This document shows positions 1 through 40,800 of a stretch of DNA of 41,344 nucleotides, one piece after another (position 1 is the first letter of the stretch; each line of letters opens with the position of its first letter). Source of the stretch: a virus; IMG/VR virus record IMGVR_UViG_3300022538_000145, positions 1 through 41,344 of that record. One strand, 5' to 3'. The notes beneath the pieces are model-generated. The model was given only the letters and a program-made list of their open reading frames with translations, was not told where the DNA came from and did not search any database. Both the position numbers and the translations under genes were made by a program.

Positions 1-141
1 GCCAGTTCATAGATATAATACTTATAGTCTTTTAGTAACTCTGGATGCTGGTAGGCCCCTTCTTGATAAGCAATCGGGGCTGCCATCTCCGGATTCTTGG
101 CTACCCATTTCTGATATTCCTCTTTGTTCTTGCCATAGAGA
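1..141. repeat. Terminal direct repeat copy 1 (identical to 41204..41344). Read as the assembly overlap of a circular or circularly permuted genome.
   Basis: The string gccagttcatagatataatac...ttcttgccatagaga occurs at both window ends, 141/141 identical by eye. It lies inside an open reading frame. Confidence 0.95.
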
Positions 142-1662: not shown

Positions 1663-1833
1663 CTATGATGCTGGGATCGGTCGTTGTGGAGTCAACTGCC
1701 GGCGCTGGCTGGCCGCTTTGCGTAATTGCTGAAGGCCGGGAGCGAAGTTGCCGCCACCGCCGCCGGCGGCCTGCGGTTTCATGGCCTCTTCAACACGCCT
1801 GTCAAATTCCTGATGAGTCAGTTTACCTGCCAT
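1663..1833 (-). CDS. Small protein (56 aa) with a Gly-rich centre.
   Basis: Hand-translated as MAGKLTHQEFDRRVEEAMKPQAAGGGGGNFAPGLQQLRKAASQRRQLTPQRPIPAS. Its ATG overlaps the portal TAA (TAATG). Confidence 0.45.
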   Translation of the reverse strand: MAGKLTHQEFDRRVEEAMKPQAAGGGGGNFAPGLQQLRKAASQRRQLTPQRPIPAS

Positions 1834-3623
1834 TATCTCTCTTCTCCCCTGCTTTTGCGGACTATCTCTTCACGGCGTTCCCCTCGCCTATCGGATTCCT
1901 CGGGGCTAATCATAGACTCATCCCCGGCTGGCTGACCGCCGCCACCGCCGCTTTGTTTATCAAGCAATGGGACCATCGGCTTGATTGATGCCCTACCCCC
2001 CGGGCGCCCTGGAGCCAAGCCCATATTGCCACCCCCGGCCCTATCACGGAGTACCATTTCAAGCTGTTGCAGAGTCATTTCAGCCAGAAGAGCAGAACCG
2101 GGATTAGTTTTGCTGTCTTCAATCTGCTGGTGACCAACTATGTAGAGCGTCTGAGCGATATCTCCGTCCTCGACTTTCTCCGCCTTGCCTTCAGCTATCA
2201 GCGCATCAGGGTTGTCTACTCTGAGCGTCTTTTCAAAAACATAGTGCTTCGGCAGTCCTAAAGCCAACTGTTGCTGGCTGATAGCCGTATTTGCGATATC
2301 CTGCTCAGGGGAAGTAGAATGGAACTCATACTTCGTACCGAACTTCTTATCGATATCGCTGGTAGAGTATTCTCTCTCGAATCCCTCTTCACCTAACTCG
2401 ACCGTGTAACCGCCCTGTATATACTGCTTCTTTATCATCTGAGAAGCGGCCCGGAAAAATAGAGCGATAGCATTTAACCTCGGGATGAATATTGCATCCT
2501 TAGAGGCGGTCAGCTTGGAGATAGCTACAGCACTCAACGGGAAGCTGAGGTTGCCAAAGTCGATGTTTGGCAAACCACCACGCTGCAGGGCGCCGACGAG
2601 CATATTGTAGAATAGCCTGGTAGCGTTCTTAACATCGTTAATCTGTATTATCTTGAAGCCACCACCACTATCAACTGGTATTATTTTCCGGAGTCCGCCA
2701 AAGTTCTTCGGTGGTGTGGCCTCAGAACCTTCATCGCTTTCATACTCGTAGGAACCCTCGAAGGTCATAGCGGTTAGAGTCTGGAAGATGGAGGCTGCCC
2801 GGTTAAGTTCCGGTATCAACCCCCGATTGTTTTCAAATATGCTTTCGCCTTCGTACTGGATGTTGTTAGAGTCCATCGAACTCGAAAGACCGGCACCGGA
2901 CTTCATGTAAATCAAAGGTGGGTACCCCAACCCATGATTTATTACTCTTTCAGGAAACTTACTCGGGTCATTTGTTTCACTGCCACCCTTGTATAATCGT
3001 GATGCTATATATATCTCATTAACGTCCTCATTCCAGAATTCAACAATCACGGAGTACCTGCTACGGACGACTATACCGTAGTCTCTTTCAATCTGAGCCT
3101 TCGACCGGGTAGTGGCGTAAGCACCCCATATCAGGCCAGCCGTATCAGTTTCGTAAGTGAAGTACCGTGTATCCATTGGGGAAATATCCGGGAGAAATTT
3201 GTCGCCATCTTCCCTCATCAGGACCCGGGCAGCGATGGAACCCCTGAGTAGTATCTGCTCGATGAGAAATCCGTAGAGTGAAACAGCGAAGGCGTTGGCC
3301 ACCATCAGGTCATTGACATAATAGATATCATGGTAGAAATTCTCAAGCGTGGTAGTCTCTTTATCGGAAAGGTTTTTGCCGAAGACGATACGCTGCATAT
3401 TGGCGCCGTTCATTATAGCGGCACTGCGTCCCAGGAAGACTTTGGCCTCGTTCATGGTGACGTTGATAACGTCCGGAGTAGGTCCGCTATTGTCAAGGTT
3501 CCGCATTACATAAGGGTCGAGAATGGCGAGTTTGCGGTCTTCATCCATGCGCTTGAACAATGCGGACATTTCCCACCATTTATCGTAGTGAAGCTGATAG
3601 TTCTGCGTATAAATAGAAGCCAT
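1833..3623 (-). CDS. Portal protein (call by synteny).
   Basis: 596-aa ORF immediately downstream of terL in the same operon. Size and position are typical of a portal, and the C-terminal tail is Gly-rich and charged. No motif-level confirmation was possible by eye. Confidence 0.7.
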   Translation of the reverse strand: MASIYTQNYQLHYDKWWEMSALFKRMDEDRKLAILDPYVMRNLDNSGPTPDVINVTMNEAKVFLGRSAAIMNGANMQRIVFGKNLSDKETTTLENFYHDIYYVNDLMVANAFAVSLYGFLIEQILLRGSIAARVLMREDGDKFLPDISPMDTRYFTYETDTAGLIWGAYATTRSKAQIERDYGIVVRSRYSVIVEFWNEDVNEIYIASRLYKGGSETNDPSKFPERVINHGLGYPPLIYMKSGAGLSSSMDSNNIQYEGESIFENNRGLIPELNRAASIFQTLTAMTFEGSYEYESDEGSEATPPKNFGGLRKIIPVDSGGGFKIIQINDVKNATRLFYNMLVGALQRGGLPNIDFGNLSFPLSAVAISKLTASKDAIFIPRLNAIALFFRAASQMIKKQYIQGGYTVELGEEGFEREYSTSDIDKKFGTKYEFHSTSPEQDIANTAISQQQLALGLPKHYVFEKTLRVDNPDALIAEGKAEKVEDGDIAQTLYIVGHQQIEDSKTNPGSALLAEMTLQQLEMVLRDRAGGGNMGLAPGRPGGRASIKPMVPLLDKQSGGGGGQPAGDESMISPEESDRRGERREEIVRKSRGEER

Positions 3624-8256: not shown

Positions 8257-8269
8257 CACAACGAACAGA

Positions 8270-8292
8270 GCCCCGGCGCTCATGGCCGGGGC
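8270..8292 (+). other. Intercistronic GC-rich hairpin.
   Basis: GCCCCGGC pairs with GCCGGGGC (8-bp stem, 7-nt loop). No U-tract follows. Confidence 0.5.
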
Positions 8293-8318
8293 CGGGGGTA
8301 GACGAGGAGAAAAGGAAA

Positions 8319-9209
8319 ATGCCGAAGATTACCTACGAGACCAAGAAGTTCTCACCTGATACCCTATCCACCATCACAACTGCCGAGGGTATCATCAGAG
8401 AGTATCAGGCACAGGGCTTCAGCCTTACGCTGAGGCAACTATACTATCAGTTCGTGGCGCGAGGGCTGATAGCCAACACCGAGCGCGACTACAAGCGCAT
8501 CGGGAATATTGTAAGCGATGCTCGGAGGGCAGGCTTGATTGATTGGGAAGCCATTGAAGACCGCACCCGATTCTTACGGAGGCTGAGTGCATGGAATCAC
8601 CCGAAGGACATCCTTGAGAGTGCAAGGGATAGCTACCGCCGCGACCTCTGGGAAACCCAGGGTCTGAGGTATGAGGTCTGGATTGAGAAGGATGCTCTGG
8701 TCGGTGTGATTGAGCCTATCTGCAAGGAACTACACGTCCCATTCTTCAGTTGCCGAGGCTATGTCTCGGACTCAGAGATGTGGTCAGCTGGCATAAGAGT
8801 GCAGGGGCACAACAGGGCAGGGCAGAACGTCATCATCCTACACTTGGGTGACCATGACCCCTCAGGCATTGACATGACTAGGGACATCAGGACGAGGATT
8901 GAACTGTTCTCAGAACTCGGTGACTTTGAACTGAAGCGCATCGCCCTCACTATGGAGCAGATTGAGGAGCAGTCACCACCCCCGAACCCAGCCAAGGTGA
9001 CCGACTCAAGATACGAGAGCTACGCCTCCGAGTACGGCGATGAGAGCTGGGAACTTGATGCTCTGGAGCCCCGCTTCATCTCCGACCTTATTCAGAATGC
9101 AGTGTTTGAGGAGCGGGACATTGGCCTCTGGCAGGAGGCGGTGGATGAGATGGATACCGAGCGCAACCAGATTCAGGACATCATTGACCGCTGGGATGAG
9201 TTATTTTAG
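8319..9209 (+). CDS. Spo11 / topoisomerase VI subunit A-like protein (short 'Mini-A'-like form: winged-helix Tyr motif plus Toprim).
   Basis: Three motifs support the call:
- LTLRQLYYQFV, with R39, Y42 and Y43, matches the RxxYY catalytic-Tyr motif.
- VWIEKDAL carries the Toprim Glu (E123).
- LGDHDPSGIDM carries the Toprim DxD followed by P-x-G, as in Topo VI-A (D178, D180).
The SD is GGAGAAAAGG. Confidence 0.7.
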   Translation: MPKITYETKKFSPDTLSTITTAEGIIREYQAQGFSLTLRQLYYQFVARGLIANTERDYKRIGNIVSDARRAGLIDWEAIEDRTRFLRRLSAWNHPKDILESARDSYRRDLWETQGLRYEVWIEKDALVGVIEPICKELHVPFFSCRGYVSDSEMWSAGIRVQGHNRAGQNVIILHLGDHDPSGIDMTRDIRTRIELFSELGDFELKRIALTMEQIEEQSPPPNPAKVTDSRYESYASEYGDESWELDALEPRFISDLIQNAVFEERDIGLWQEAVDEMDTERNQIQDIIDRWDELF

Positions 9210-9323
9210 CCAAGTAATAAGCTCAAGCAGAGCAGACGCCCGGGGATAGTGAAGCGAATAGTTCGAGGGTGCTTTATCGGGCAGTGAGCAGCACACTATA
9301 TCCGGGCAAAGGGGGTAAAGCCT

Positions 9324-9449
9324 ATGCCAAGTGAAGAACAAATAGAACTCCGAGCAATAGTAATCCAGCTTATGAGAGAAGCCGGCATCATCAAGGTGGA
9401 CGATGCCATCACCCCGGAGCTGGAAAAAGAAATAAAAGGAGAAGGGTAA
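9324..9449 (+). CDS. Small acidic protein (41 aa).
   Basis: Hand-translated as MPSEEQIELRAIVIQLMREAGIIKVDDAITPELEKEIKGEG. It has a GGGGG SD, and its TAA abuts the next ATG. Confidence 0.45.
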   Translation: MPSEEQIELRAIVIQLMREAGIIKVDDAITPELEKEIKGEG

Positions 9450-9872
9450 ATGAAACTATTTAAGAGAAAGCCAAAGCCACTAGGTGTTAAGCTAGACGCT
9501 GGTTCCGCCGCTGGTACTGAGCCGGAACTGAAGTTGGTTGACTTGTGCAAGCTCGAGCTACAGCACTCGATGAAGATCCGGTTTGACCCTCACCCGAGCG
9601 ACTATGAGTACCGCTATAACTTCACTTACACTCCATCGTACAGGTATGGTGTCCGCAGCTATACCAGCAAGCCGGTTGAGGAAGTCGGCTTGACAGTGTG
9701 TGACCTCGAAGCCCGGGTGATGATTGAGAAAGGCGACATTATACTGAAGTTCAGGTATTGCCCTACCCTCAGACGGCTGGCCGGTATGATGGCCGAGGTC
9801 CAATGGCAAATCGAGGGTATACTCAAGGATTATCAGCGCTTCGAGAAATTCTCCAAACTCGAGAAGAAATAA
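9450..9872 (+). CDS. Hypothetical protein.
   Basis: 140-aa ORF with an AAAGGAGAAGGG SD. No motif recognised. Confidence 0.6.
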   Translation: MKLFKRKPKPLGVKLDAGSAAGTEPELKLVDLCKLELQHSMKIRFDPHPSDYEYRYNFTYTPSYRYGVRSYTSKPVEEVGLTVCDLEARVMIEKGDIILKFRYCPTLRRLAGMMAEVQWQIEGILKDYQRFEKFSKLEKK

Positions 9873-9902
9873 GATAAATCTCAAGACAGGGGGTGAATAG
9901 TA

Positions 9903-10118
9903 ATGACAGTCACCTGGGAATCAGTCGAGTCGACAAATATAGATATGATAGGCTATGATGAAGACAACTCACAGCTTCACGTCAAGTTCCGCTCCGGGGC
10001 TGAGTACGTCTACAATGAAGTTCCACCAGCCGTTTATCAAGAGTTCCTGGACTCCGACAGCAAGGGAAAGTTCCTGAACGAGCGTATCAAGGGCCGGTAC
10101 AACTACGCCAGGGTATAA
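9903..10118 (+). CDS. KTSC domain protein.
   Basis: IDMIGYDEDNSQLHVKFRSGAEYVYNEVPPAVYQEFLDSDSKGKFLNERIKGRYNY matches the KTSC pattern. The SD is GGGGGTGA. Confidence 0.8.
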   Translation: MTVTWESVESTNIDMIGYDEDNSQLHVKFRSGAEYVYNEVPPAVYQEFLDSDSKGKFLNERIKGRYNYARV

Positions 10119-10919: not shown

Positions 10920-11354
10920 TTATCTCCTCAGATTTCTGGTGTATTGCTTGTAGCTGGTAATCTTCCTGCTATTCCCCGATACATAACCCAGAGCATTTTG
11001 TATCCTATGGAAGACGTCTTGCCGCCCCAAGTTTAGACACTGTGCAATATGTTCTGTCACAAAAATCTCATCGTCAGGCTCGAAGGCATAAAGGAATTCC
11101 ATCATCAGGCCATCGACACCGGCTGCCTGGATACGAATGTCTAACTCGGCGGCTATCCTGGCCGAGACCTCGAAAGAAGCGGCTGCCTTAATCGGCGCCT
11201 TGCTTATGGCCGGGTCTGTGTAGCCTGTCTCTCTAGTTGAACGAGGATAGACACCGCTCCGGAGCAGGGACAGGTGAGGCATGAGCCACTTAATCTGAGG
11301 CTTAGAATACCTGGCCTCTACTGCTCCCGGACTATACCAGTCTTTCTTTTTCAT
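10920..11354 (-). CDS. Hypothetical protein with a C-terminal HTH resembling sigma70 region 4; possible late-gene regulator.
   Basis: It is the last gene of the early unit. The segment HIAQCLNLGRQDVFHRIQNALGYVSG looks like an HTH. The functional call is speculative. Confidence 0.3.
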   Translation of the reverse strand: MKKKDWYSPGAVEARYSKPQIKWLMPHLSLLRSGVYPRSTRETGYTDPAISKAPIKAAASFEVSARIAAELDIRIQAAGVDGLMMEFLYAFEPDDEIFVTEHIAQCLNLGRQDVFHRIQNALGYVSGNSRKITSYKQYTRNLRR

Positions 11355-12127
11355 GCTATCATTTCACCCTGCCTTTTATCTCTACGTTTGGCATCTCGGC
11401 TTATCCACCAGAGCCAATATTCATCAGGGTTTGAAAATGGTAATGGCGTTCCACGTTCTATACGTTTATAGAAATATCTCACGGCGGCAAGATACCACGC
11501 TTTTGCTAATTTAGGGAAGCGGATAAGTTGCATCGCAGTTAATTTTCTTGATAGGAACGGGCATAGAACACACCCTATCCTTTCAAAACCTTCTGCGTAG
11601 AGAGAGCAAACTTTAATGTTGTGGATGCCGATATATTCCCACACTTCCCCGCCTGACCAATGTAATATGGGCATTACCCAAACACTCGCACTATCTTTAT
11701 GTTTGGGGGTTTCAAAGCATTTATACAATTTCCTTGTGGTGCTTTCGGCGTGCCGCATACCCAAAATCTTCACTCTGGCATTGCCACCCGCCTCTTTAAT
11801 CAGACGGCAACACCATCGCCTTCTACGAGTAGGCAAACCATTAGTTAAAACCTTCTTGAAAAATCCCCTAGCATGATAATCCCACTGAACATCGGGGTGA
11901 TACTGCTTTATGAAATCGTGTATCTCTTTGGGGTCTATCGGGCTGACGCAGTAATGCCAGTCGGCTTTAACTCCTGCCTGTTGAGTAAGATGCTTGATTA
12001 CACAACTATCCTTACCACCGCTAAACGCACCATAGTAACCATCGGGCGGTTCGCACGCCTTCAACAGGGCGATGGCCGTCTCCACCTTGTTCAGCCCTGT
12101 CAACATATCAACTTGGAAGATACTCAT
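11351..12127 (-). CDS. PAPS reductase / PP-loop ATPase family protein (DndC/CysH-like fold).
   Basis: The PP-loop is GAFSGGKDSCV. Further matches are RRRRWCCRLIKE, ILGMRHAESTTR, PILHWSGGEVWEYI and ERIGCVLCPF. Confidence 0.8.
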   Translation of the reverse strand: MSIFQVDMLTGLNKVETAIALLKACEPPDGYYGAFSGGKDSCVIKHLTQQAGVKADWHYCVSPIDPKEIHDFIKQYHPDVQWDYHARGFFKKVLTNGLPTRRRRWCCRLIKEAGGNARVKILGMRHAESTTRKLYKCFETPKHKDSASVWVMPILHWSGGEVWEYIGIHNIKVCSLYAEGFERIGCVLCPFLSRKLTAMQLIRFPKLAKAWYLAAVRYFYKRIERGTPLPFSNPDEYWLWWISRDAKRRDKRQGEMIA

Positions 12128-12991: not shown

Positions 12992-13165
12992 TCAACCTCC
13001 CTCTACTTTGACAGCTACATTATCCACAATGGCATATCCTGATGGCGGTGGTTGGCACTGGTGACACAGCCAGCGCTTCTTACCTATTTAATAATCCCCG
13101 GGCCAGTACCAGTCACCGCCACAGATACGGCAGGGATGGTCAGGCTTGTTAGGTTGCTCAGGCAC
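12992..13165 (-). pseudogene. Zinc-ribbon ORF interrupted by an in-frame TAA at 13090..13088. It is a nonsense allele, a readthrough candidate or a sequencing error.
   Basis: Hand translation gives GTG(13165) PEQPNKPDHPCRICGGDWYWPGDY-TAA-IGKKRWLCHQCQPPPSGYAIVDNVAVKVEGG-TGA. The two halves of a CxxC...CxxC ribbon lie on either side of the stop. A GGAG SD sits 7 nt upstream of the GTG. Confidence 0.5.
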
Positions 13166-13940
13166 TTGGCATCTCCTGTCTCATATTACCCTGCTTGTCA
13201 AGTAACTCAGGGTAGTCGCTAATCTCACAGGTATTCAAGTTGTTTTTAAGAAAGACTGGTATTCCTGCTTTGTCGCAAGCGGTTACTATTTCAACTACCC
13301 ATTCATACTTCGGAATGATTGTCGGCTTGGTCTGTGCGCCGATGATTACCCAATCTAATGCTCCTATACTTAAATCCGTTACACCTGCTGGCTGTAATAG
13401 TGGCTCAAATGATATAAACTTACTTTTTGCTTCAATCCTGTATAAATGATGAATTGCTTCCCTATAAGCTATACCATCGGTAGCCGTAACTCCCACCCAG
13501 CAGTTATCGGGGAACGGCGACCACTTGATAAGGTTCTGCGGTTGCTTGGTGAGGAGATAGAAGCGGTGTTCTGGCCACGCCTTAATATAGTTCAATACCT
13601 GCTTGGTCCAATCTTCGGGGATTCCGATACCGAACAGGTCGGACATATCACATACAAAGATGCCTTTTTCTTTACCAGCTATAACATCGGGTTTTAATTC
13701 CTTTAACCTTTCAGGCCAGAAGCGAGGATAGAAGGGGTTAGGATGCCCTTCATTCCAATGTTCGGGAAGTATGTTATCAGGCAAGTTGGTATTCGCTAGA
13801 TACCTTGACCTCAATCGCCCATTCGCCAGCTTCCTCGCATAGCAGTATTCACAGCCATTGAGACAGCCGGTGATAGGATTCCAAATATACCCCTGTTTGC
13901 CATCGGGATTCTTTGCCCATTCAATTTTTGTTTTGTTCAT
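13158..13940 (-). CDS. Gp37/Gp68 family protein (DUF5131).
   Basis: The N-terminus KIEWAKNPDGKQGYIWNPITGCLNGCEYCYARKLA matches the family signature. The Cys spacing is CX3CX2C. The SD is GGAGTGA. Confidence 0.75.
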   Translation of the reverse strand: MNKTKIEWAKNPDGKQGYIWNPITGCLNGCEYCYARKLANGRLRSRYLANTNLPDNILPEHWNEGHPNPFYPRFWPERLKELKPDVIAGKEKGIFVCDMSDLFGIGIPEDWTKQVLNYIKAWPEHRFYLLTKQPQNLIKWSPFPDNCWVGVTATDGIAYREAIHHLYRIEAKSKFISFEPLLQPAGVTDLSIGALDWVIIGAQTKPTIIPKYEWVVEIVTACDKAGIPVFLKNNLNTCEISDYPELLDKQGNMRQEMPSA

Positions 13941-23663: not shown

Positions 23664-24026
23664 TTATGAAGCTGGCGGTATATCTAATAGGTAAGGATAG
23701 CCTTCATTTAGACTACAAATGCACCAGACACCACCACAAACAACGGCACTCAAGGTACGCTCATTGCCATCCTCATCCCCATAATAGAGCTCTTCATCGT
23801 GAACCTTCGTATCGCCAAAAGCTCTACTCTCACCAGTAAGCGTTCCTTCTTTCCTCCGCTCAGCTCCGTCATCATCCACCCAATAGAGGTAAGTTCCCTT
23901 AACCTTGAAGTTCCAGCCTGTAGGAGTCTCACCGGTAGTATCGCCGGTTATCAACTGCTCGGCTGAGTCGTCGTGTGCCAGGAAACTGACTTGCTCACCC
24001 TTTACCTTGAGAGCCCGGACTGTCAT
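23664..24026 (-). CDS. Hypothetical virion-module protein.
   Basis: 120-aa ORF that shares one base with the upstream stop codon. Confidence 0.5.
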   Translation of the reverse strand: MTVRALKVKGEQVSFLAHDDSAEQLITGDTTGETPTGWNFKVKGTYLYWVDDDGAERRKEGTLTGESRAFGDTKVHDEELYYGDEDGNERTLSAVVCGGVWCICSLNEGYPYLLDIPPAS

Positions 24027-25870
24027 TAAGCCGCCTCAGAGGGTATCAGTAGTTGCTGTGAAATAGTAGCTTTCCGGAAGTAGGCGTCTTCGTAGAGAGC
24101 TAAGAGGATATCGTTGAGGTCATCGATATCCACCTTGCCCTCGAGGATATCGAGTATCTGCTCTATCCACGAATAAGCATTATCGATGAGTGGTAGGAGA
24201 TTTTCCACCGTTAGGCGTTGCTCACTTCCTGTCTCGGGCCCATATCCTGTAAGGCTACCTATGCCAAGAGGGGGCCGGCCAAAGCCCAGGTTCATTGAGA
24301 ACTGGCCTGGCTTGTAGAATATAGTAATGAAGCCGATATTACCGGCCCGGCTGTCGCCGGCTCGGGCATCGACGAAGTTTACGTAGTCATACTCTTCCTG
24401 TGCAAAGTTCACAAAGGGAACTACTGCAGACCCTTTGCTGGCCACCATCTGAGATTTAGACAGGAAGGCGGTAGCCAGGTTCGTACACTGTGCATCACTG
24501 GTGGCTCGGACGTAAAAAGTCTTTATCTCCCTCATATCGGTCAGGTCAGCACTATCATCCTTTGCGAAGCCGGTAAAGCTGTCCGAATGAGAAGGATGGT
24601 TCTTGACTGTAATATAGTTCGGGGATACTATCCTTCTGCGGAAGCGCTTGCTGAAGAAGTTGTGAAAGTCTCGGCCCTGTTCCAAGCTGTAGCTATAGTC
24701 AAAAGTAGTACCTGATGTAGTGGGAACGAAGATGTGAATCAGGCCATCACTTCCGGCCCGGGCAACGCAGTCTGAGTACCGCAGGACTTCTTTTACCTTC
24801 TGCAGTCTGTTATCATTCAGATTAATCCTGATACTGTCTGCCGGGATGAAGGAATCTAGCAGGTCATCCTCACTATCGAAGACAAGACCGTAAGGTGGGT
24901 AGTTATTCCAAACTGTTAAAGGAGTCGCACTGTAGGTATATCGGTAGACGGCATCATAGCTACCCTCATCCGTCCAATCACCCTGATAAATATGAGATAG
25001 GTGCTCTGAAGCTAATACACTACTGGAATTATAGGCAACATCCACATAATTAGAGGCATCACCGTCCTGGAATTGAGCGACGATTCTTACCTCACCGCTT
25101 TCCCTATAAACAGGAGAGTCGATTGTGACCTCAACCCAGGCATAATCTTCTGTCAGGCTGTTAGCATCACCCCATTCCTTTAATGCCAGTAAGTCTCCGC
25201 CCACCAGTGGATCATCAGGGTCAACAGTATAAAAGCCGATTTTTACCGGACCGCTCGGAGTACCAACCTTCTTTAGCTTTAAGGCCAGCTTGGTTACAGT
25301 ACGATCAGTTATCGTCAGCCTTTGGCCAGCGAAATAACGAAGCCCCTCACGCAAAGACATATCACTATCTGACGTAGCCTGTTCAACGGTACTCTCCGAG
25401 TCTGGGTTAGTCAGGCTGATAATCTCAATGAGCCAGTCTTTAATCGTTCTGGAATCACCGCTCTCAACAGTGTAGGAAGCCTCAGCCGTATGCTTCCCCA
25501 TGCGGTCAAAGATACCCTCGAGTTCCAGACCACATTCCAGCCGATCCCGGTAAGAATCCCTGTCCTGGCCTACTACCCAAAGGGGAGCTGTCGGCATCCA
25601 TTCGGCGCCGGCCTTAGTAATCAGGCCGTAACTCATAACGACCTTGAAGCCATCGAGGTCTATGCTATGCAGTGCCTTATCAGTGTCGTCCAGCATCAAA
25701 GCAACCTTATGGCTGAAGGGCTGCCTGGAATGGGTTATCTGCTTTATCTTAGTAGTCGTGTAGGTGTAGGTAGTGCTGCCATAGGTGAGAACACACCGGA
25801 TAAGCAGATTCTTGGCTGGTATAGAACTGGCTCTCTGGCCGATTAAAAGTGATGGAGATATGTCTAGCAT
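24026..25870 (-). CDS. Large structural protein of the tail or baseplate region; function unknown.
   Basis: 614-aa ORF inside the tail gene block, with an ATGA-type overlap upstream. Confidence 0.45.
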   Translation of the reverse strand: MLDISPSLLIGQRASSIPAKNLLIRCVLTYGSTTYTYTTTKIKQITHSRQPFSHKVALMLDDTDKALHSIDLDGFKVVMSYGLITKAGAEWMPTAPLWVVGQDRDSYRDRLECGLELEGIFDRMGKHTAEASYTVESGDSRTIKDWLIEIISLTNPDSESTVEQATSDSDMSLREGLRYFAGQRLTITDRTVTKLALKLKKVGTPSGPVKIGFYTVDPDDPLVGGDLLALKEWGDANSLTEDYAWVEVTIDSPVYRESGEVRIVAQFQDGDASNYVDVAYNSSSVLASEHLSHIYQGDWTDEGSYDAVYRYTYSATPLTVWNNYPPYGLVFDSEDDLLDSFIPADSIRINLNDNRLQKVKEVLRYSDCVARAGSDGLIHIFVPTTSGTTFDYSYSLEQGRDFHNFFSKRFRRRIVSPNYITVKNHPSHSDSFTGFAKDDSADLTDMREIKTFYVRATSDAQCTNLATAFLSKSQMVASKGSAVVPFVNFAQEEYDYVNFVDARAGDSRAGNIGFITIFYKPGQFSMNLGFGRPPLGIGSLTGYGPETGSEQRLTVENLLPLIDNAYSWIEQILDILEGKVDIDDLNDILLALYEDAYFRKATISQQLLIPSEAA

Positions 25871-30193: not shown

Positions 30194-31033
30194 TTAATCT
30201 TTGGTCAATGCCTCGTAATTGTCTTCCAGAGTATTATGCTTGAGTGCTAACTGATAAAGACTAAGTTGCTCTCTTCCCCAAGTTACCATTCGAGGACCGA
30301 CATTGACGCCGCCCACATTGAGAGCGTTGAGCTGCTCCCGGCCCTTGTTCATTGCGGCTACGGCAGCTACTCCCTGAATCAATACTGTATCGTGGATTGC
30401 TTCCAGGGTCGAAGTGTTATCTGTTAGAGTATGTTTCTTCCGGCAGTACAGGTGGACAGGCTCACCATCGCTGGGCAGGATATTGATAACCAGCGTCATT
30501 GTCTTGGCAAATACAGTGGCGTTCCGGAACTGCTTGATGTTCCGGCCTACCCGATATTCCACCGGCTTGTTTCTCCGGAGTTCCAGCAGGCCGCTTATGT
30601 TGGTTATATCAATCTCTTTTGAGTTAGAGGTCGTAACAATCGTAAGACCAACATCTTTGCCTACAGTATGGATAGCGGCAGTGGTTTCCAGTTGGGCCCG
30701 GGTTACAGTAAAGTTGTCCGCAGATGCCAGGGCAGTTACAGACAGTACCTCACTATCAATCGTGATAAAGAATGGATAATCAGTCGGGAAGTCATCGTCT
30801 GAAGCTGCCACCAGTGTAGTAGCTGAGGCGGATAGCTCCGTAGCCACTGTGCTGAGAGCATCGAAGGCAGTAACCTTAGCCTCGTATGGCATCTTCAGTT
30901 CGATTTCATCCAGCTTTATCCGGATGAGGCGGTCGAGTTCATCGTCTTCCCACTCCAGATCAACGCCTTCCACGAATTCATCACGCAGAATATCACGCAC
31001 AGAATCCCTTATGTCGGATAATTTTCTTCCCAT
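30194..31033 (-). CDS. Structural protein sharing an N-proximal module with the tailspike; possibly an adaptor or tail protein.
   Basis: FPTDYPFFITIDSEVLSVT...FTVTRAQLETTAAIH aligns with LPSTYPFHLTVEDEIVSVT...LTVVRAQQSTSAAAH in the 951-aa protein. Confidence 0.5.
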   Translation of the reverse strand: MGRKLSDIRDSVRDILRDEFVEGVDLEWEDDELDRLIRIKLDEIELKMPYEAKVTAFDALSTVATELSASATTLVAASDDDFPTDYPFFITIDSEVLSVTALASADNFTVTRAQLETTAAIHTVGKDVGLTIVTTSNSKEIDITNISGLLELRRNKPVEYRVGRNIKQFRNATVFAKTMTLVINILPSDGEPVHLYCRKKHTLTDNTSTLEAIHDTVLIQGVAAVAAMNKGREQLNALNVGGVNVGPRMVTWGREQLSLYQLALKHNTLEDNYEALTKD

Positions 31034-31043
31034 GTTCAGCTCC

Positions 31044-31424
31044 TTACGGTGTTCGGTTAAAGCCCCTCACCTCGATTGACCTGTCTGCGCTCTGATTCGC
31101 CCCAGCTTTAATCCGGATAAACTGGTAACCGCCGATCCAGAATGTCACCGACTTAGCCGTTGTGCCGGCAGATGTAGCGTGAAGGAAAGAACCGGTTGCA
31201 TCAGCATCGAGAGTGTGGACAGGGACCGGTACTTCGTCTACGCCTTCACCTTCCTGGACAACAGGGTTGATGGTGGCACTGGTCAGAGCAGGAAGCCGAA
31301 CAGTCAGGAACTCGTAGTTCTCTTTCAAGTCAACAAGCTCTGAATACTGGTCAACGTCATCCCCTGTGAATTCGGTATCCCGGTCAATATCGATGAGTGC
31401 TGTCTTCCAAGCAGATACTTTCAT
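31044..31424 (-). CDS. Hypothetical structural-module protein.
   Basis: 126-aa ORF with a GGAGGT SD. Confidence 0.5.
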   Translation of the reverse strand: MKVSAWKTALIDIDRDTEFTGDDVDQYSELVDLKENYEFLTVRLPALTSATINPVVQEGEGVDEVPVPVHTLDADATGSFLHATSAGTTAKSVTFWIGGYQFIRIKAGANQSADRSIEVRGFNRTP

Positions 31425-31439
31425 AATAACCTCCGGTGT

Positions 31440-31619
31440 TTAGTTACCTCTCGGTATCTTCCGCCCCCAGGCTGACTCAGCCATACCATAAGCCTGCCCT
31501 GATGCCTCTTTGGGAGTCTTGCCTTCACTGTGGATGAGGAAGTCTATAGTACGGCTTATTTTACCTCGGACGGTTTCGAGTGAGTCATCTTTTCTGATTG
31601 AGTCTACTGCTAGAGGCAT
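31440..31619 (-). CDS. Small protein (59 aa); not in the track.
   Basis: Hand-translated as MPLAVDSIRKDDSLETVRGKISRTIDFLIHSEGKTPKEASGQAYGMAESAWGRKIPRGN. A GGAGGT SD lies 5 nt upstream. Confidence 0.5.
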   Translation of the reverse strand: MPLAVDSIRKDDSLETVRGKISRTIDFLIHSEGKTPKEASGQAYGMAESAWGRKIPRGN

Positions 31620-31631
31620 TACTTACCTCCA

Positions 31632-32057
31632 TCATTCCCGATATTTTTTGCTGTGCCTCTTACCCACACCACTTGTTTCTTTGTGGATACTCGCACATTT
31701 GGTGCAGAAGTATTCGCCCGGGCCGGGAACCCGAACTTCCCCAGGAGCCGGTTTATTTTCGGGCGGCGGAGTCGGCTCTTTCTTGAGCTGCCCTTCAGGG
31801 TCAGGGTTTACTTCAGGCTTGGTTTCACTACCAATGATAGGTGCGGCTTCCATTCTGGCCAGTTCCTCAGCCGGCGGCGGTGGTAATTCCCTGGCACCCA
31901 CAACTAGGCCATGCCCACACTGACGGCAAAAGTCAGTCCAGATGAGTTTCCCATTGGTATCTTTGCCCTTCTCGGTGGCCTTTGGTGTCGCCTCTCTGAG
32001 GTCAAAATTACAGGCTGGGCATTTATCTACAGGCCATGCTAATTTTAGCTCTTCCAT
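31632..32057 (-). CDS. Zinc-ribbon protein with a Pro-rich linker, located in the structural block.
   Basis: I set the start to ATG 32057 (MEELKLAWPVDKCPACNF) with an AAGGAGAG SD. Further Cys pairs are CRQC and FCTKC. The track ORF extends to 32186 in the same frame. Confidence 0.5.
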   Translation of the reverse strand: MEELKLAWPVDKCPACNFDLREATPKATEKGKDTNGKLIWTDFCRQCGHGLVVGARELPPPPAEELARMEAAPIIGSETKPEVNPDPEGQLKKEPTPPPENKPAPGEVRVPGPGEYFCTKCASIHKETSGVGKRHSKKYRE

Positions 32058-32950: not shown

Positions 32951-34093
32951 TTATCCAGCCGTAGGTGCAGCGTTGGTAATGTCGGTGATTCGACCTAAGC
33001 CCCATTTGCTTCCAACGATGAGGTTGGTGTAGGAAGCAAGGCGCATCGCCCTACCGATATAGCCTTCGAGTTTGTCGAAGTATTCCAGATTGAAGAACTC
33101 TCCGTCTGTCTCGGTCTTACCAAACGCTACTTTGACACCAGGATCAATCTCGCCCAGGGTTGTCATCCCGAGCTTGACTGCGAAGATGGAGTACATTTTG
33201 GTTCCGGAAGTGTAAGGTGCTCTGGCGTCTCCGGAAGTTGTGCCCTGACCTGTGTTGACCTGTTCTGCCACCATAAAGTCGGAACGGATTATGGGCTTGT
33301 TGTCAAACATGAGTGTCCGTCCGCCAGCCTCATTTGTGGCGTAGCCAATCAGACCCAGGGCGCCGGCTGTATCAGCTTTCAGAGCAGCGATACCGAGTTC
33401 CCGGTATACCCGGTCAATCTGACGAGCAAGTGCAAAGGGCATCAGCCAGTAGTCGAAGCCATGCCTCAGTTCGTCGCTGATGATTCGCATATTTTCGAGT
33501 GATAGAGCCCCTTCACCCTCGTCGATATCCCAGGCTTGACCCCATTGGGTAGCTGCCCAAGCGTGAAGACCATCCATTGACAGGCCGGTGCCGTCGTAGG
33601 TGAAGTCGTCATAGATAATCTTCGAGCCGAGCTTCTTGGTCAAATCCCTCATGTTGCCCTCGAGCATCAATCTCTCGTAGTCGTTGACGGTCTGCCAGAT
33701 GGCGTTATCGTATTTATCCAGCTTCGTCATTATGTAGGCTATACGGAGAACTGCTGTCTGAGCATCGAAGGTAGCGCCCTCGCTGAATACTGTCGCTCCG
33801 CCCTGACCGATATCGGCAACGCTATCCTCAAGGTTCGTTGCTTCACGAAGCCATCGGATATATTCGCCGGTGTGGTTGGCCTGGACAAAGCCGATGATAT
33901 CAACGGGGTTGCCACGCTTCGCATTGTCGTCCACGACGCCAGGGATAAGCGTCGGGGTCGTTGCCTTCAGCACTTCAGCCAGGTTATTCCAGTAACCACC
34001 TGACAGAAGGCCCATCGCAAGCAAAATAGGCATAGCAAAGATGAATTGGGTAATGCCCCATGCTTGCCTGCATAAAGTTCTTGCTTTCCGCAT
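32951..34093 (-). CDS. Major capsid protein (HK97-fold-like).
   Basis: It follows the scaffold-like gene. The segments GALSLENMRIISDELRHGFDYWLMPFALARQI and MFDNKPIIRSDFM resemble HK97-family capsid patterns. A GGAGGG SD lies 8 nt upstream of ATG 34093. Confidence 0.7.
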   Translation of the reverse strand: MRKARTLCRQAWGITQFIFAMPILLAMGLLSGGYWNNLAEVLKATTPTLIPGVVDDNAKRGNPVDIIGFVQANHTGEYIRWLREATNLEDSVADIGQGGATVFSEGATFDAQTAVLRIAYIMTKLDKYDNAIWQTVNDYERLMLEGNMRDLTKKLGSKIIYDDFTYDGTGLSMDGLHAWAATQWGQAWDIDEGEGALSLENMRIISDELRHGFDYWLMPFALARQIDRVYRELGIAALKADTAGALGLIGYATNEAGGRTLMFDNKPIIRSDFMVAEQVNTGQGTTSGDARAPYTSGTKMYSIFAVKLGMTTLGEIDPGVKVAFGKTETDGEFFNLEYFDKLEGYIGRAMRLASYTNLIVGSKWGLGRITDITNAAPTAG

Positions 34094-34884: not shown

Positions 34885-37800
34885 TTACTCCCTTAATGCC
34901 TTCAATCGCTCTTCGATTGCACCGCCTCTTTCGGCCCACTCTTCTATAAAGCGCTCATAGGCAGTCAAGTTCTCACGCCTGACCTTCTCAGAGACCGGCG
35001 TGTAGTCGAACTTCAATACCAGCCAGGCGTCGAGTGCCGGGTTAGCCATCCTGAAGTCGTCCTTTGCCTTCAGATGAGGTTGTGCCAGATAGTCCAGATA
35101 AAGGTTGAAGACTTCCCGGCTGGGTACTTTGCTGAAATCCTTTTTCTCATTGCCAAACTGATCCCGGTAGACGTCCCGGTAGAACTCGATATTCTCAATA
35201 AGGAACCAGTCATCGGCATACCACAGGTCAGTACCGGTATCCAGCTTCCAGTTATCCGGCTTGCCCTCACCGATGATTGTATAGTAGCCAACGTAGGCTT
35301 CGATATATTGCTCCGGAACGAACTTGCCATACGCATTTCTCCGGAGCTCGGCCAGGCCGAAGGCGGTATATTTTCCCTCATTATCAAATCGCATGGAGTT
35401 TCTTTCTCGTTCCCTTTCGTCCTCATCAACGATATAGTGCTCAGATTCATTATCGGCAAGGCCCTCAAGTCTATCGAAGTCAGCTTTATTCTCATCGTAG
35501 ATATTGTCGTATTGCACCGCCGGCACGTCTTCAGGCTTGGGTATATCGATGCCGCCAACGTCGTGCATGGCTGTAGCGAATTCAGGATTATCAATCAGGA
35601 AGCGCTCCTGACGCATACCTTTGGCTTCCAGTTCGTTATAGGCGACAAAGTTCTCAATCTGGTCTTCCGGGAATGTCTCACCGGTCAGCTTGTTTTTCAT
35701 CTGATAGGCTTGGCGGCGGCGCCGGTCCATGCGGTATTCCGGATTGGCAGCCAGATAAGCAACTCTGGCCTCGGAGTCATCGCCATCGATAGCGTTGTAC
35801 TCATTGTCCTGAGTACGCCACCGGACGGTTATCCTGAGTGCTGGAACATTCCAAGTACTTCCATCATCGGTCAGTAGGCCACCGTCTAAGGCTTTATCGA
35901 ATACGTCCTGATGGTCCACCATCCATATCTTTGCCTCAGCACTTTGAGGTTCTACAGTGCCTAACAGCCGGCCTCTCTCAGCCCACAAATCGGCTTCCGT
36001 ATCGGTGAAGCCAGCCTTATAAGCCTCGACTTTCTCAAGGTCATCGAAGTATTCGCTATCAGGAAACTCCTTGAGAAACGCTGCCCGGCGCTTGTCCATA
36101 TCATCGATGTAAGTCTCCGGAGAATTCTTATCGCCCAGCTCATTCCAGTATGCATCCTCTTTGACGTTCTTGGACTGCAGCCGTATCGCCGGCTCCACCC
36201 ACTCGTCGTAATGGCCACGCTCTTCCTCAGTGGCCAGGCCGCCCCGGTCCTTCAGCATACTTTCCTCAAGTGCCTTTTCATAGGCTTTCGGGTTCTCAAA
36301 TGCCCATTCCTTTACCAGAGGACTGCCGCCACTATACTCGCTTACCAGTCGGCCACGTTCTACCCACGCCTCTATCTGAACATCATCGAAGCCGGCAGAT
36401 AGCGCCTCAGTCCTCATTTCATCATCGAAGAATTCACTGTCCGGGAATTCTTTATAGAAGGCAGTACGCCGGTCATCCTCATCTTCGATATACTCCGGCG
36501 AGTCCTTATCCAGCAACGTCTTGTAATACTCCCTTTCAGCCCGGTTCTTGACCTTCAGTTCGTAGTATCGCTCCGGCTGAGGGGGTTTATTCAGGGCATC
36601 GGCACCCATCTTCAGTGCCTCATCCTGATACCATTTAAGCAACTCCGGGTCCCGAGCCAGCACTATCATTGCCTCAGCACTCATGGCGCCGAACTCCTGG
36701 ACCGCCGCTTCCCTTTCAAAGTAGTTATCTGCAGACGCTTCAGACGGCAATATCATCGTGGGTAGTCCGTTATCCGGAATGTCAAGGATTTTCTGTAGCG
36801 TCAGGAATTCTTCATAAGCAGCCTTGCTCATTAGTTCAGCCTGTCCCCATATAGCCAACTGTGCGTTTTCGCTCGGGTGACTACGCAGATAATCAAGGCG
36901 AGGATTGATACCAATCTCAGCCTCATGCTTTTCAAGGAACTCGGCCTTCAGATCCTCATCAGTAATAGAGTGATATTCCATAAGCAAAGAGAATTGCTGC
37001 TGAGAGATATTGCCTAGATAGACTTTATTATGTCTCTCGTCAGCATCCCATTCCTTCAGCTTTTCCTCGTCACCGGTGGCTACAAGCGCTTCCCTTTCAC
37101 GCCACATCTGGTAATACTGAGCGAAGGTAGTACCCTTAGCCGCATCAGCGTTTACCTTAAAGAGTTTCTCATTCGGTAAGATACTCTGTCTCTCTTTGAT
37201 AGCCCGGGCCTCAGCGATTGCCCGGATATATTCCGGGAAGCCCTTAGTTGCTGTCTTAGTTGCCGGGTCAACGCCCTTGAACTGCGATGCCGTATCCGCC
37301 CAAAAGTCCTCGGTAGTATAGTATGGTGTGCGTACTCCGTAAGGAAGACTGTCAGTGTACTTCGGCAAGCCCAGCTTAGGAAAGTTATCCACCCAATCGC
37401 CGGTGTAAGTCTGGACGCCGGCGCCAACTATAGCCGGTATAGCTACCTCTAAAGCGGTAACCGGGTCGTCCCTGTACGCTTCGTAGATATCCCAAACAGC
37501 AAACGGAGCTATACGTTCCGCCCACTGTTCCTTATTCTTTACGTCAACCTCTTCACCCACAAAGTTCCTGCCCTTCCAGAAATCAAGCAGTAAAGACATT
37601 AGCGGAGCCGCCTTGCCCCTGAGTAGGTTCTGGATGAGGTCAAGGGGATCGGGCTTATACTCGGCACCAGTCACACTTGAGACGCCTGTGCCGGTAATAG
37701 CCCGGGTAAAGAAGACGAGGAACTGCCGGAAGCCACCCCAGGGGTCCACTCTGGTCTTGCCAATCCTGATTGACATATACTCAGCGCTTCTCGGGTCCCT

Positions 37801-40800
37801 TTCTACTTCCCACCAGCCGGCCATAGCACCCATTAGAACAATTCCGCCAAGCGTACTGACGAATAGCGCAGCGTTCTTCCATGCCTCAGTTCTTACCCGG
37901 GGATTGGCATTTAGCAAGTCAGTTATGGAAAGTATCCTACCTATTGCCATCCGGGGAGCGAAGAACATGGCGCTTAATGCCGGCGCAGCTATCTGGTATT
38001 TACCTAGGGAGCCTCGAGCTGTGAAGTTGGCAAGGCTCTTAGAGAAGGCAATCATTTCTTGCTTTATATCAAAAGCCTGACCCGGCTTCAACGTCTTTTT
38101 ACCGGAAGCGTACTGTGCACTGAGCTTGAGCATAGCCTTATAGTAGTTCTTGAATATCAGCCAGTTATGCTCATTAGTGCCAGTTTCAAAGGCTCTTTGA
38201 GATACCCTGACATGAGGTAACCAAGCCGTAAATCTCGGCAGTATTCGCTCAACACCCTTTGCATAACCGAATTCCTCAGTACCTCGCCACTGCCCGGTTC
38301 CCTTCTGTATAATGAGTGGCCGGAGAAAGTCGCCGCCAGCCTCTTCACATACCTCATAAAACTGGTAAAGCGGATCTTGAGTAATTCTCGACCATGAAGC
38401 CTCAGCCGACTTCTGACTCCATATCGCCTTCCATGCCTCGACGTTGGCCAGGGCAAAGGATATCGGATGGCTGACAATAAGCGGTGCTTGCTGTCTCCAA
38501 AACGAGAAGTCGAATGATGCCTTGTTAGCTCTAAGGAAGTTACCGATATCTACCGGTGCCATCCCCAGTTCTTTAAGAGCCCTGATAACTATATCCGTAG
38601 CAGGAGTCGGCCAGAGTGGGAGTTCCTTAATAGCATTATCAATCGGAACTTCGTACTTTGCCACTGGTGGCAGTGGATAAGCCCTATCCCGGGCCTCCAT
38701 TCTCTTTAGCTGGAACTCGTCGAATGTAATCTTACCCTCGGCTAACTGCTGACTCAGATCTAATTCTGATATAGCAAAGGCCAGATCGCCCTCAGTCCTC
38801 AAATCCTGGACAACCGGTATCTCAAACGCAGGCTCCATCATAGTTCTGTAGCCGAAAGGTATGCCGGATAGTGTTCTCAGGTACTCGGCCATGTCAGCAT
38901 CGATCGGCACATAATCCCGGCCTATCTCATGGAAGACGCCCTCGACTACTTCCTCTATTGTCCGGCCCTCTTTTGAAATCGTATCAAGTGCTTTCATCAC
39001 CTGCGGCTGCTCACCAAAGACGTAGTTCAGTCTATCCCAGGCGGAACCGCCTTCAGGGAATAGAATACTGCCGGGGCCTTTCTTACGAGGTATGGCCCGG
39101 GCATGGCGTATCAGCTTTCCGGCCTCATCTCTCTGAGGTAAAGCGTTGACCAGAGCGGTATAGGTGGCCGCCATTTCAAAGGGATAATCCCTCATCTTTT
39201 CGGCCACCTGTTGAAAAAGTACATTCCGCATCTGGTCGGAAAGGTCATCGAGGTAGTCAGTTTCGACAACTGGCAATTTACCGGAGAGAGTTTCTTTAAT
39301 CGCTTGCTTTATGGCCTCTTCAGCCGGCATACCCTCTTGAATCATAAGTTCCTGGGCCCGGGCCTTCAGATTCTCGGCTTGGCCTGTCTTCGTCTCACGC
39401 CTTAACTCTTCAGTCAGCGCCCAGGCGTCGATCGCTTTGGCTCCCATCACATAATTACCAAAGACCTCTAAGGTTCTAGTACGCTGAGCCGGTGTCAGCA
39501 TCCTTTCACCAGTGGGAGATAGAACGATATCCTTTGGCTTTATCTCAGGTACAGACCTGGATATCTCTGCTGCCGAAACCTTTACAGCCTTTATCTTTCT
39601 CTTTGCCTCACGAATACGCATGACTCGCTCGGCAATCTCATCAGGACTGAGCCCGAATTCTTTGGTCAAATCATCGAGGGCTTCATCTTTTGGAACTTTG
39701 TTATATTCAGGCACTCCCTTCTGAGCGTACTTGGCAAAACTATGGTCAGGATATAACTGCTCAGCCTGCTTAACAGTAAAGTATTCAGGGAAGGTCTGCT
39801 CCCTCAATGAGATAAAGAAATCAAGCCCAACCTTTTTACCGGCAATCTGTATTCTTTTTCGGGCAACCGGGTCAGTCGCCAAGAATTCCCTTAGCCCTGC
39901 AACCTCCGCCTCAGCCTCATAAGCCGCAGCCGCTTGCTCATATTCCTTGAGCTTTAGCTGGTCTTCCATCGATATCTGAGTAATCCTGCCTCTTCCGGGT
40001 GGCCGGACTACTCTCTCTTCGCCAAACATACCACGCTGAACACCAGCTTCGGGCATACCGGGTTCGGCAAATAACGCCCTCTTCTCTGCCAGCTTTCGCT
40101 CCGCTTCGGCAACGGACTGAGCGTAGAAGGTGGTCCCTGTCACCGGGTCGGTGAACTGCATCCCCAAACCTTCCTGAATTCCGTCATACCGAATCCCTAC
40201 TTCTTTGGCTATCTGTGCGCCAGTCTCGGTGATGGGGGCTACTGGCTCAACCTTTAATGCTTGGTATTCCTCCTTTAGTATTCTCGTTTGCTCTTTAATA
40301 TTTAACGGAAAACCAGTACCTTTTAACGACTCTTTATGTGAGGCTAGTCCTGCCTTAACATACTCGGCTTCACTAGCTTTACTTACGTCTATACCATATT
40401 TGATTTGAGCCCTGCCCTCGATAGTTGGTTCGCCTCTTAATGCTGCTATTTTCTGGTCAACTTCAAATATCTCCGCAGAAACATCCTGACCCCTGCGTTC
40501 CCTCACCAGTAGCGCTTTTCGCTTTTTCGCAAGTTCGGCTTCTGACTCTTCAGGAACTAACCTGAGAGAACCTCTCTCGTCCCTGACCACCTTCTTCAGT
40601 TGCTCAAACCAGTTACCCTTTTCGTCCTTCAGCCAGCCCCGGGCTTTCTTCTGGATTTCACTTAGCCCTGATTGCTCAAGAGGACTGACCATACGGACCG
40701 ATACGCCGGCAGCAAGACCCGATGGCAGCAGGGTAGCCACCGCCGTCTTGACCGCTATATCGGGTAGGTTATCTAATATGCTTCTATTCTCATCGTAGAA

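Follow-up and report, generated by a model that had tools for sequence, protein, structure and literature searches.

Topo Mini-A proteins were defined by Takahashi, Da Cunha, Krupovic, Mayer, Forterre and Gadelle in 2020 (NAR Genomics and Bioinformatics, PMC7671362). The portions of that paper drawn on here describe them as homologues of subunit A from type IIB topoisomerases with a length of ∼300 amino acids (aa), compared with ∼400 aa for Top6A, a catalytic RxxY/FY motif, the Toprim glutamate and DxDxxG motif, and a diagnostic C-terminal T2BI box, xWELDAL, that sets them apart from Topo VI and Topo VIII. The 5Y-CAP domain has lost its N-terminal half, there is no Bergerat-fold partner, and the genes are carried by viruses or proviruses. 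The same portions discuss the family as a possible ancestor-like form of the type IIB topoisomerases, and a review of December 2024 still called the role of Mini-A unexplored (PMC11894792). Here we describe a gene at positions 8319-9209 of the IMG/VR virus record IMGVR_UViG_3300022538_000145, analysed over its whole length of 41,344 nucleotides (nt; ‘the window’). A sequence-only reading had earlier taken its product for a stand-alone Topo VI-A/Spo11-like protein. The gene encodes a regular member of the Topo Mini-A family, and the earlier assignment is upheld by the conserved motifs and by a predicted fold that matches only Topo VI-A in the Protein Data Bank (PDB). On balance we favour, with some but not strong confidence, the view that this protein is an enzyme of the phage's replication/recombination module that breaks and rejoins DNA through Tyr43, with the help of Mg and without ATP.

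Membership of the Topo Mini-A family

The length of 296 aa, the RxxYY motif, the Toprim glutamate and DxDxxG, an exact WELDAL box, the absence of a B subunit and the viral origin all agree with the available portions of the Mini-A definition, from which the window protein differs in nothing essential. It starts ∼38 residues before the catalytic motif and, compared with partial Top6A sequences, may be without the N-terminal half of the 5Y-CAP. The three motifs quoted in the sequence-only reading were all located, in the order given there (Table 1); the WELDAL box had been overlooked. The genes deposited as ‘Topo Mini-A’ from two 8.8-kb archaeal elements (LC711082 and LC711084) align with the window protein over 89% of the length (E = 9e-22, ∼30% identity), and all catalytic columns are common to both. 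With this alignment and the WELDAL box, the Mini-A membership previously raised as a possibility is confirmed. The PHROGs family phrog_6247, ‘DNA topoisomerase’, matches the protein over its full length (E = 2.4e-113), and the NCBI protein E3J60_01240, annotated as hypothetical, is 100% identical to it. The family was published in 2019/2020, and PHROGs and many GenBank phage records already give it the label ‘DNA topoisomerase’, so the protein is nothing new in kind and the find is much less novel than the sequence-only reading implied.

The family is large. A word-indexed search of a 5.8-billion-protein set returned at least 8000 homologues of the window protein, and an exhaustive HMMER search of 1.84 billion cluster representatives gave 8538 clusters (50% identity) at E<=1e-3 and 1394 at E<=1e-30. 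With homologues so numerous, the open reading frame (ORF) is not a chance one. Cultured phages are represented by 84 records with homologues of 45-55% identity (tblastn), among them Pseudanabaena phage Pam3, Pseudomonas phages NP1, PaMx25 and JG012, Xylella phage Salvo, Listeria phage LWP01 and Salmonella phage 118970_sal1, as well as Brevundimonas, Microbacterium and Cellulophaga phages. Many of these records annotate the homologue as ‘DNA topoisomerase’ or ‘DNA topoisomerase VI’. The closest cultured-phage copy is 54.5% identical and the closest metagenomic copy 75%.

Residue conservation was read from an alignment of 151 sequences, the window protein and 150 representatives of 41-61% identity. 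E123, K124, G147, D178, D180 and G183 are present in every sequence (151/151), and R39 and Y43 are each kept in 148. Y42 varies (Y in 127, F in 13 and H in 8), so Y43, which by its place in the motif corresponds to the second tyrosine of the Top6A/Spo11 motif, is the predicted nucleophile; of the two tyrosines singled out earlier for mutation, Y43 is thus the one preferred. The positions of the WELDAL box are kept in 134-148 of the 151 sequences. A further motif, PPPNPAKxTDSR, is conserved almost at the level of the catalytic residues (K226 in 148, D229 in 147 and R231 in 149 sequences); it is absent from the motifs discussed in the available portions of the Mini-A paper (PMC7671362). A second alignment of eight sequences combined the protein of this phage with those of four cultured phages, a Paenibacillus episome, an archaeal Mini-A (28% identity) and a Streptomyces linear-plasmid copy (29%). 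Here R39, Y43, E123, K124, D178, D180, G183, K226, D229, E245, A248 and L249 were invariant. The C-terminal extension (residues 251-296) is poorly conserved in sequence (variable columns of alignment A2).

In two long homologues, P0140 (677 aa) and P0182 (712 aa), extra sequence is inserted precisely where ‘...RVEC’ meets ‘WVEKDA’, at the equivalent of window residues 119/121 (nt ∼8675-8680). P0182 passes the Pfam threshold for LAGLIDADG_3, with weaker Hint and intein-splicing matches, and to judge from these matches the two insertions are likely LAGLIDADG/Hint inteins adjoining the Toprim glutamate. Inteins at this position are what an indispensable catalytic site would lead one to expect. 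The portions of the Mini-A literature drawn on here do not mention inteins. Other homologues have additional domains: P0245 (457 aa) is a fusion of a full Mini-A with a DUF1643 domain at the N-terminus (E = 7.6e-23), and others have C-terminal extensions of 100-160 aa, some rich in zinc-ribbon-like CxxC motifs (P0146).

An exact 141-bp direct repeat at the two ends of the window (1-141 and 41204-41344) identifies it as a complete phage genome of 41,203 unique bp, either circular or terminally redundant. No GHKL/HATPase or Topo VI-B match was found in any window ORF of at least 239 aa (Pfam and/or PHROGs), and a heuristic for the Bergerat N and G1 box motifs also found nothing. Within the reach of these scans, the earlier statement that the genome encodes no B subunit therefore stands, and the protein is not to be called a topoisomerase VI or a type II topoisomerase in the functional sense.

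Predicted fold and relation to Topo VI-A and Spo11

A structural model was built with AlphaFold2 (AF2) from a diverse alignment (model 2; predicted local distance difference test (pLDDT) 96.5, predicted template-modelling score (pTM) 0.88) and compared by Foldseek with 350,542 PDB chains. Only two chains matched at E<=1e-3, 1d3y_B (E = 1.1e-5) and 1d3y_A (E = 5.3e-5). Both are the A subunit of M. jannaschii topoisomerase VI, matched with probability 1.00 over ∼310 aligned columns that cover both domains. The sequence-only reading had proposed a comparison with Topo VI-A of this kind, and these chains were the only significant PDB matches; the sub-significant matches that came next were RecR, a small Toprim protein, T6 topo II and T7 primase. 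In the model, the Toprim elements follow in the order β116-122, α125-137, β142-144, α151-166, β170-176, α181-197 and β203-209, with E123 at the C-terminal end of strand 1 and D178xD180 at that of strand 3, an order that fits the Toprim topology. The predicted structure is the decisive evidence, and it gives the window protein a Topo VI-A-like two-domain fold of 5Y-CAP and Toprim. An unrelated fold or unconserved catalytic residues had been named in advance as grounds for abandoning the assignment; the predicted fold is Topo VI-A-like and the residues are conserved, so that neither speaks against it.

With Topo VI-A (1D3Y) and Spo11 the window protein shares the 5Y-CAP plus Toprim fold and the collinear R..YY, E, (K/R)G and DxDPxG motifs. 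Its length falls 70-90 aa below that of the solved archaeal Top6A chains (369-389 aa), so the earlier remark that it is far shorter was right in direction and modestly overstated. It also differs from Topo VI-A in having no GHKL/transducer partner and in having WELDAL instead of the Topo VI T2BI sequence, and strand passage by the window protein is implausible without an ATPase gate. Topo VIII, the plasmid-borne type IIB enzyme, represents a mobile-element branch of the same superfamily and, according to the available portions of PMC7671362, is also without the N-terminal half of 5Y-CAP, but it possesses a B moiety with a Bergerat fold and an RVELNAM T2BI box, neither of which is found in the window.

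Sequence profiles gave a fainter picture of the same relationship. When 113 diverse members were scanned singly against Pfam, TP6A_N (PF04406) matched 13 (best E = 0.0024), DUF2399 13 (best E = 0.0029), DUF7281 four, and Toprim_2, TOP6A-Spo11_Toprim (PF21180) and POTRA_2 two each. All of these matches were below threshold, TP6A_N and DUF2399 recurring most. For a direct comparison, a Top6A profile was assembled by querying PDB sequences with yeast Spo11 and then gathering 120 archaeal Top6A proteins with PF04406, PF20768 and PF21180. The hhalign alignment of Mini-A with this profile runs over 186-187 collinear columns (score 26, P = 0.011), with an HH probability of only 4-12%, and holds all four motifs in register, pairing LTLRQLYY with STLREmYY, VWIEKDAL with AIETGGM, CRGY with LKGQ and GDHDPSG with TDGDPWS. 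Widening the profile with Spo11 and Sulfolobus-type fragments (the search for the latter yielded merely three short proteins) raised the score to 31.9 (P = 0.0024), against 12.6 for the reversed template. Against single Top6A or Spo11 sequences, hhalign paired the tyrosine motif correctly (STLRE(L/M)YY; TVRDIFY), but with negligible probability.

Several of these comparisons weigh against the account favoured here. Judged by profiles, the homology of Mini-A to Top6A is weak but consistent, and its weakness has to be counted. The window protein had no Pfam match even at E<=10, where neither TP6A_N nor TOP6A-Spo11_Toprim was reached, and no match in NCBIfam or among PDB sequences; the family consensus sequence likewise had no match in Pfam, and the family hidden Markov models (HMMs; A1 and A2) retrieved no Top6A from the PDB sequences. 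A block-shuffled Top6A template scored as high in hhalign as the real one. Thus the score rests on the motif blocks and not on overall collinearity, although this null is uninformative because the motif blocks survive the shuffling. The superposition of the model on 1D3Y reached a TM of only 0.38 (root-mean-square deviation 18.5 Å), so the domain orientation of the model either differs from that in 1D3Y or is unreliably predicted. Finally, a model made from close homologues only (model 1, pLDDT 83.2) gave generic Rossmann-like Foldseek matches and no Topo VI-A. Taken by itself this outcome would have been a false negative, which the model from the diverse alignment mended. A fold search in BFVD returned weak DnaG-primase Toprim matches alone and no full-length Mini-A models.

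The locus, its genome and its neighbours

The features of the gene are collected in Table 1.

Table 1. Features of the Topo Mini-A gene and its predicted product (window coordinates)
Feature	Position	Strand	Basis or detail
Topo Mini-A coding sequence	8319..9209	+	ATG to TAG, 296 aa, stop included
Shine-Dalgarno-like GAGGAG	8304..8309	+	9 nt 5' of the ATG, read from the sequence
N-terminal segment, predicted helices 13-31, 38-47 and 55-70 plus short strands	8355..8597	+	AF2 model
RQLYY motif, R39 and predicted catalytic tyrosine Y43	8433..8447	+	within LTLRQLYYQFV, residues 36-46, nt 8424-8456
Toprim domain, residues 114-218	8658..8972	+	AF2 secondary structure, Foldseek
Toprim glutamate E123	8685..8687	+	in VWIEKDAL, residues 120-127, nt 8676-8699
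DHDPSG, predicted metal-binding D178 and D180, plus G183	8850..8867	+	in GDHDPSGIDM, residues 177-186, nt 8847-8876
PPPNPAKxTDSR motif, residues 220-231	8976..9011	+	conservation alignment
WELDAL (T2BI box), residues 244-249	9048..9065	+	exact match, preceded by S243
C-terminal helical extension, residues 251-296	9069..9206	+	predicted AF2 helices 251-263, 268-290 and 292-295

Between the upstream ORF and the Mini-A ribosome-binding site lies a GC-rich hairpin with a 9-bp stem (AGCCCCGGC-GCTCATG-GCCGGGGCC, window 8269-8293). It is without a T-run on the + strand and may be an RNA processing/stability element or a chance structure. A promoter/terminator scan around the gene gave sigma-70-like promoter and terminator matches at chance level, and the Pfam/PHROGs scans detected no repressor, helix-turn-helix (HTH) protein or other regulator adjoining it; the repressor-controlled expression supposed in the sequence-only reading is thus not borne out.

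The phage also encodes, by Pfam/PHROGs matches, terminase-like, DUF1353/tail-chaperone, tail-fibre, two HNH and KTSC proteins, together with a PAPS-reductase-like protein, a DUF5131 protein, a DnaD-like initiator, a DnaC-like loader and RecT. Its structural module is largely uncharted: a 2134-aa ORF (34885-41289, - strand) is without a PHROGs or Pfam match, and other large ORFs without a detectable family lie at 1833-3623, 24026-25870 and 32951-34093. The NCBI label of the sequence, ‘MAG: Dehalococcoidia bacterium’, probably reflects an artefact of binning or else points to the host.

Gene neighbourhoods were sampled from 80 Mini-A loci of IMG/VR. ORFs were called in 85 loci (1508 ORFs), clustered by blastp and then merged by HMMs, and 69-72 loci were compared. 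No neighbour, such as a possible ‘Mini-B’, is conserved across 69 loci: the commonest neighbour family, an HTH regulator at position -1 or -2, occurs in 11 of the 69, and the next, an SNF2-type helicase, in 10. None of the nearby window genes recurs beside Mini-A in another locus, the sole one with relatives being the DUF5131 gene ∼4 kb off, which has them in two other loci. The recurrent neighbours include helicases, a serine recombinase, an integrase, a VRR-NUC-like endonuclease, an HD hydrolase, a PAPS-reductase-like protein and a 629-aa family that, judged by eye, is likely a DNA polymerase; in cultured phages they include a ligase, Sak4, a Cas4-type exonuclease, a helicase, a primase and a DNA polymerase. 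Such neighbours, none of them fixed, point to Mini-A as an autonomous gene of the early replication/recombination module.

Two of the nearby window genes lie 2-4 kb from Mini-A, the PAPS-reductase-like gene (phrog_424, 11351-12127, - strand) and the DUF5131 gene (13158-13940, - strand), the latter with a weak radical-SAM match. PAPS-reductase-like genes occur within 6 kb of Mini-A in five other loci, and DNA-hypermodification genes are found in several phages with Mini-A (Pam3, Queuovirinae, Salvo). A link of Mini-A with modified DNA is possible, and these occurrences are too sporadic to establish it.

Outside phages, 45 plasmid records carry a distant Mini-A copy, 36 of them from Streptomyces and often near the end of a linear plasmid. 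Mini-A is therefore not confined to viruses, whereas the available portions of PMC7671362 tie it to viruses and proviruses. The Streptomyces plasmid copies are 28-30% identical to the window protein and keep all catalytic residues, and several lie within 2-17 kb of the plasmid end. In one Streptomyces linear plasmid of 33.5 kb (NZ_CP101652.1) the Mini-A-like gene, at 31012-31869, lies 1.6 kb from the end, close to a gene for an ATP-dependent DNA ligase. A connection between a 5'-tyrosyl-linking enzyme and the ends of linear replicons would be speculative. A much closer copy (52% identity, 9144-10037, - strand) is found on a 15,151-bp circular ‘plasmid’ of Paenibacillus durus (NZ_CP009289.1). 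This replicon has every annotated gene on one strand and encodes a Zot-type ATPase, a 519-aa protein with a signal-peptide-like N-terminus and Pro/Thr-rich linkers, and many small hydrophobic ORFs; from its gene content it looks like the episome of a filamentous (inovirus-like) phage.

Proposed activity and competing explanations

In the breakage-rejoining mechanism that we favour, the protein would be laid out as the latter half of the 5Y-CAP winged helix (R39/Y43), the Toprim domain (E123/D178/D180) and the WELDAL (T2BI) box, and would act as a homodimer, as in Topo VI-A and Spo11. The Toprim acidic triad would bind Mg2+, and Tyr43 would attack the DNA backbone to form a resealable 5'-phosphotyrosyl protein-DNA intermediate, making the enzyme an ATP-independent breakage-rejoining enzyme and not a strand-passage topoisomerase. 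Controlled nicks or double-strand breaks (DSBs) in circularised or replicating phage DNA could then start rolling-circle or recombination-dependent replication; an alternative task in this phage would be to relax and resolve replication intermediates. Since a DnaD-like initiator, a DnaC-like loader and RecT are all encoded by the phage itself, a nicking/breaking or resolving role is favoured here, while in small replicons without another Rep the same chemistry may act as replication initiator. Two results from related proteins make stand-alone activity plausible by analogy: mouse SPO11 makes covalent DSBs without partners (in the portions of PMC11922746 used here), and MksG, a Topo VI-A-like Toprim protein, cuts DNA without ATP (PMC10123090).

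To the counterweights from profiles and fold comparison three more must be added. The literature searched, up to mid-2026, reports no biochemical activity of any Mini-A. Archaeal Top6A requires Top6B and ATP for cleavage, so that the self-sufficiency of Mini-A is not guaranteed. Lastly, because no partner gene is conserved, the biological role is drawn from loose context only.

A bolder version, which we offer tentatively, is that Mini-A acts as a tyrosine transesterase that is self-sufficient and needs no ATP, in effect a viral ‘Spo11 without partners’, which would make protein-linked nicks or DSBs to start rolling-circle or recombination-dependent replication and would serve as sole initiator in small replicons such as the skuldviruses, the 8.8-kb archaeal element and the inovirus-like episome of P. 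durus. In a rival explanation, the main task of the protein would be to initiate replication, as a site-specific nickase that sets off the rolling circle and stays 5'-linked, functionally analogous to the HUH Rep proteins. This is the only functional proposal that we found, made for Asgard skuldviruses that have Mini-A without another replication gene (bioRxiv 10.1101/2021.07.29.453957). It accords with LC711082, where Mini-A is the sole gene annotated as a DNA enzyme, and it has limited support from the P. durus episome: annotation, BLAST and a crude motif search gave no Rep homologue and no HUH-motif ORF there, while Moorella phage MCACPph1, the sole phage with which it has Zot in common, encodes a Rep but lacks Mini-A. 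Such small-replicon cases are anecdotal, however, with the absence of Rep judged from those three approaches alone; the window phage is already equipped with a DnaD-like replication initiator as well as a DnaC-like helicase loader, and most Mini-A phages bring their own primase, polymerase or helicase. As the primary function of the protein, initiation is unlikely.

We also think it quite unlikely that the protein is a hydrolytic Toprim nuclease of the JetD/MksG type (Wadjet/MksBEFG), which would cut by metal-dependent hydrolysis without a covalent tyrosine intermediate and might, for example, degrade host or competing DNA. The two groups have in common a Topo VI-A-like Toprim domain, and the weak similarity of Mini-A to DUF2399, which we take to be the C-terminal Toprim domain of JetD, is as frequent among the 113 scanned members as that to TP6A_N. 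Among the matches listed, one homologue is named ‘DUF2399 domain-containing’ in UniRef. MksG itself is an ATP-independent, cation-dependent nuclease, but it has no tyrosine candidate in its 5Y-CAP-equivalent domain (PMC10123090). Mini-A keeps both R39 and Y43 in 148 of the 151 sequences, at the place where hhalign puts the catalytic tyrosine motif of Top6A/Spo11, and this difference favours transesterification over simple hydrolysis. In addition, JetD and MksG work with SMC-like partners in plasmid defence, whereas Mini-A is found in phage genomes without such partners: PADLOC found no defence-system match in the window, and no SMC, Mks or Jet partner genes are present there. The structural comparison points the same way, for Foldseek gave Topo VI-A, and neither JetD nor MksG was among the best 50 matches.

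It is very unlikely that Mini-A is the A subunit of a genuine type IIB topoisomerase whose strand passage would depend on recruiting a partner, either an unrecognised ‘Mini-B’ or an ATPase of the host. The dependence of Top6A on Top6B would suit this explanation, and the four window ORFs without a detectable family offer candidates for the partner. The Mini-A authors left the possibility open, as far as the available portions of PMC7671362 go. Against it stand the complete genome without a GHKL domain or motif and the neighbourhood survey, in which the most frequent family reached only 11 of 69 loci. The idea of a non-catalytic DNA-binding or regulatory protein that merely keeps a topoisomerase-like fold, which would fit the ‘DNA binding protein’ annotations in Microbacterium and Curtobacterium phage records and the lack of a demonstrated activity, is highly improbable, given a metal-binding triad that is invariant and a nucleophile motif that is nearly so across thousands of divergent lineages, and likely inteins located at the active-site glutamate.

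The uncultured window phage suits experiments less well than the dozens of cultured, genetically tractable phages with Mini-A. What it exemplifies is a very abundant family that keeps the whole catalytic set of Spo11/Topo VI-A, has neither an ATPase partner nor a demonstrated activity, and whose function would bear on how phage replication starts or is resolved and on the origin of the enzyme that makes meiotic breaks. If the tentative reading of Mini-A as a self-sufficient transesterase and sole initiator in small replicons is true, the family would count as a new class of initiators in replication/recombination, and it would be a candidate for the stand-alone form from which Topo VI-A and Spo11 descend.

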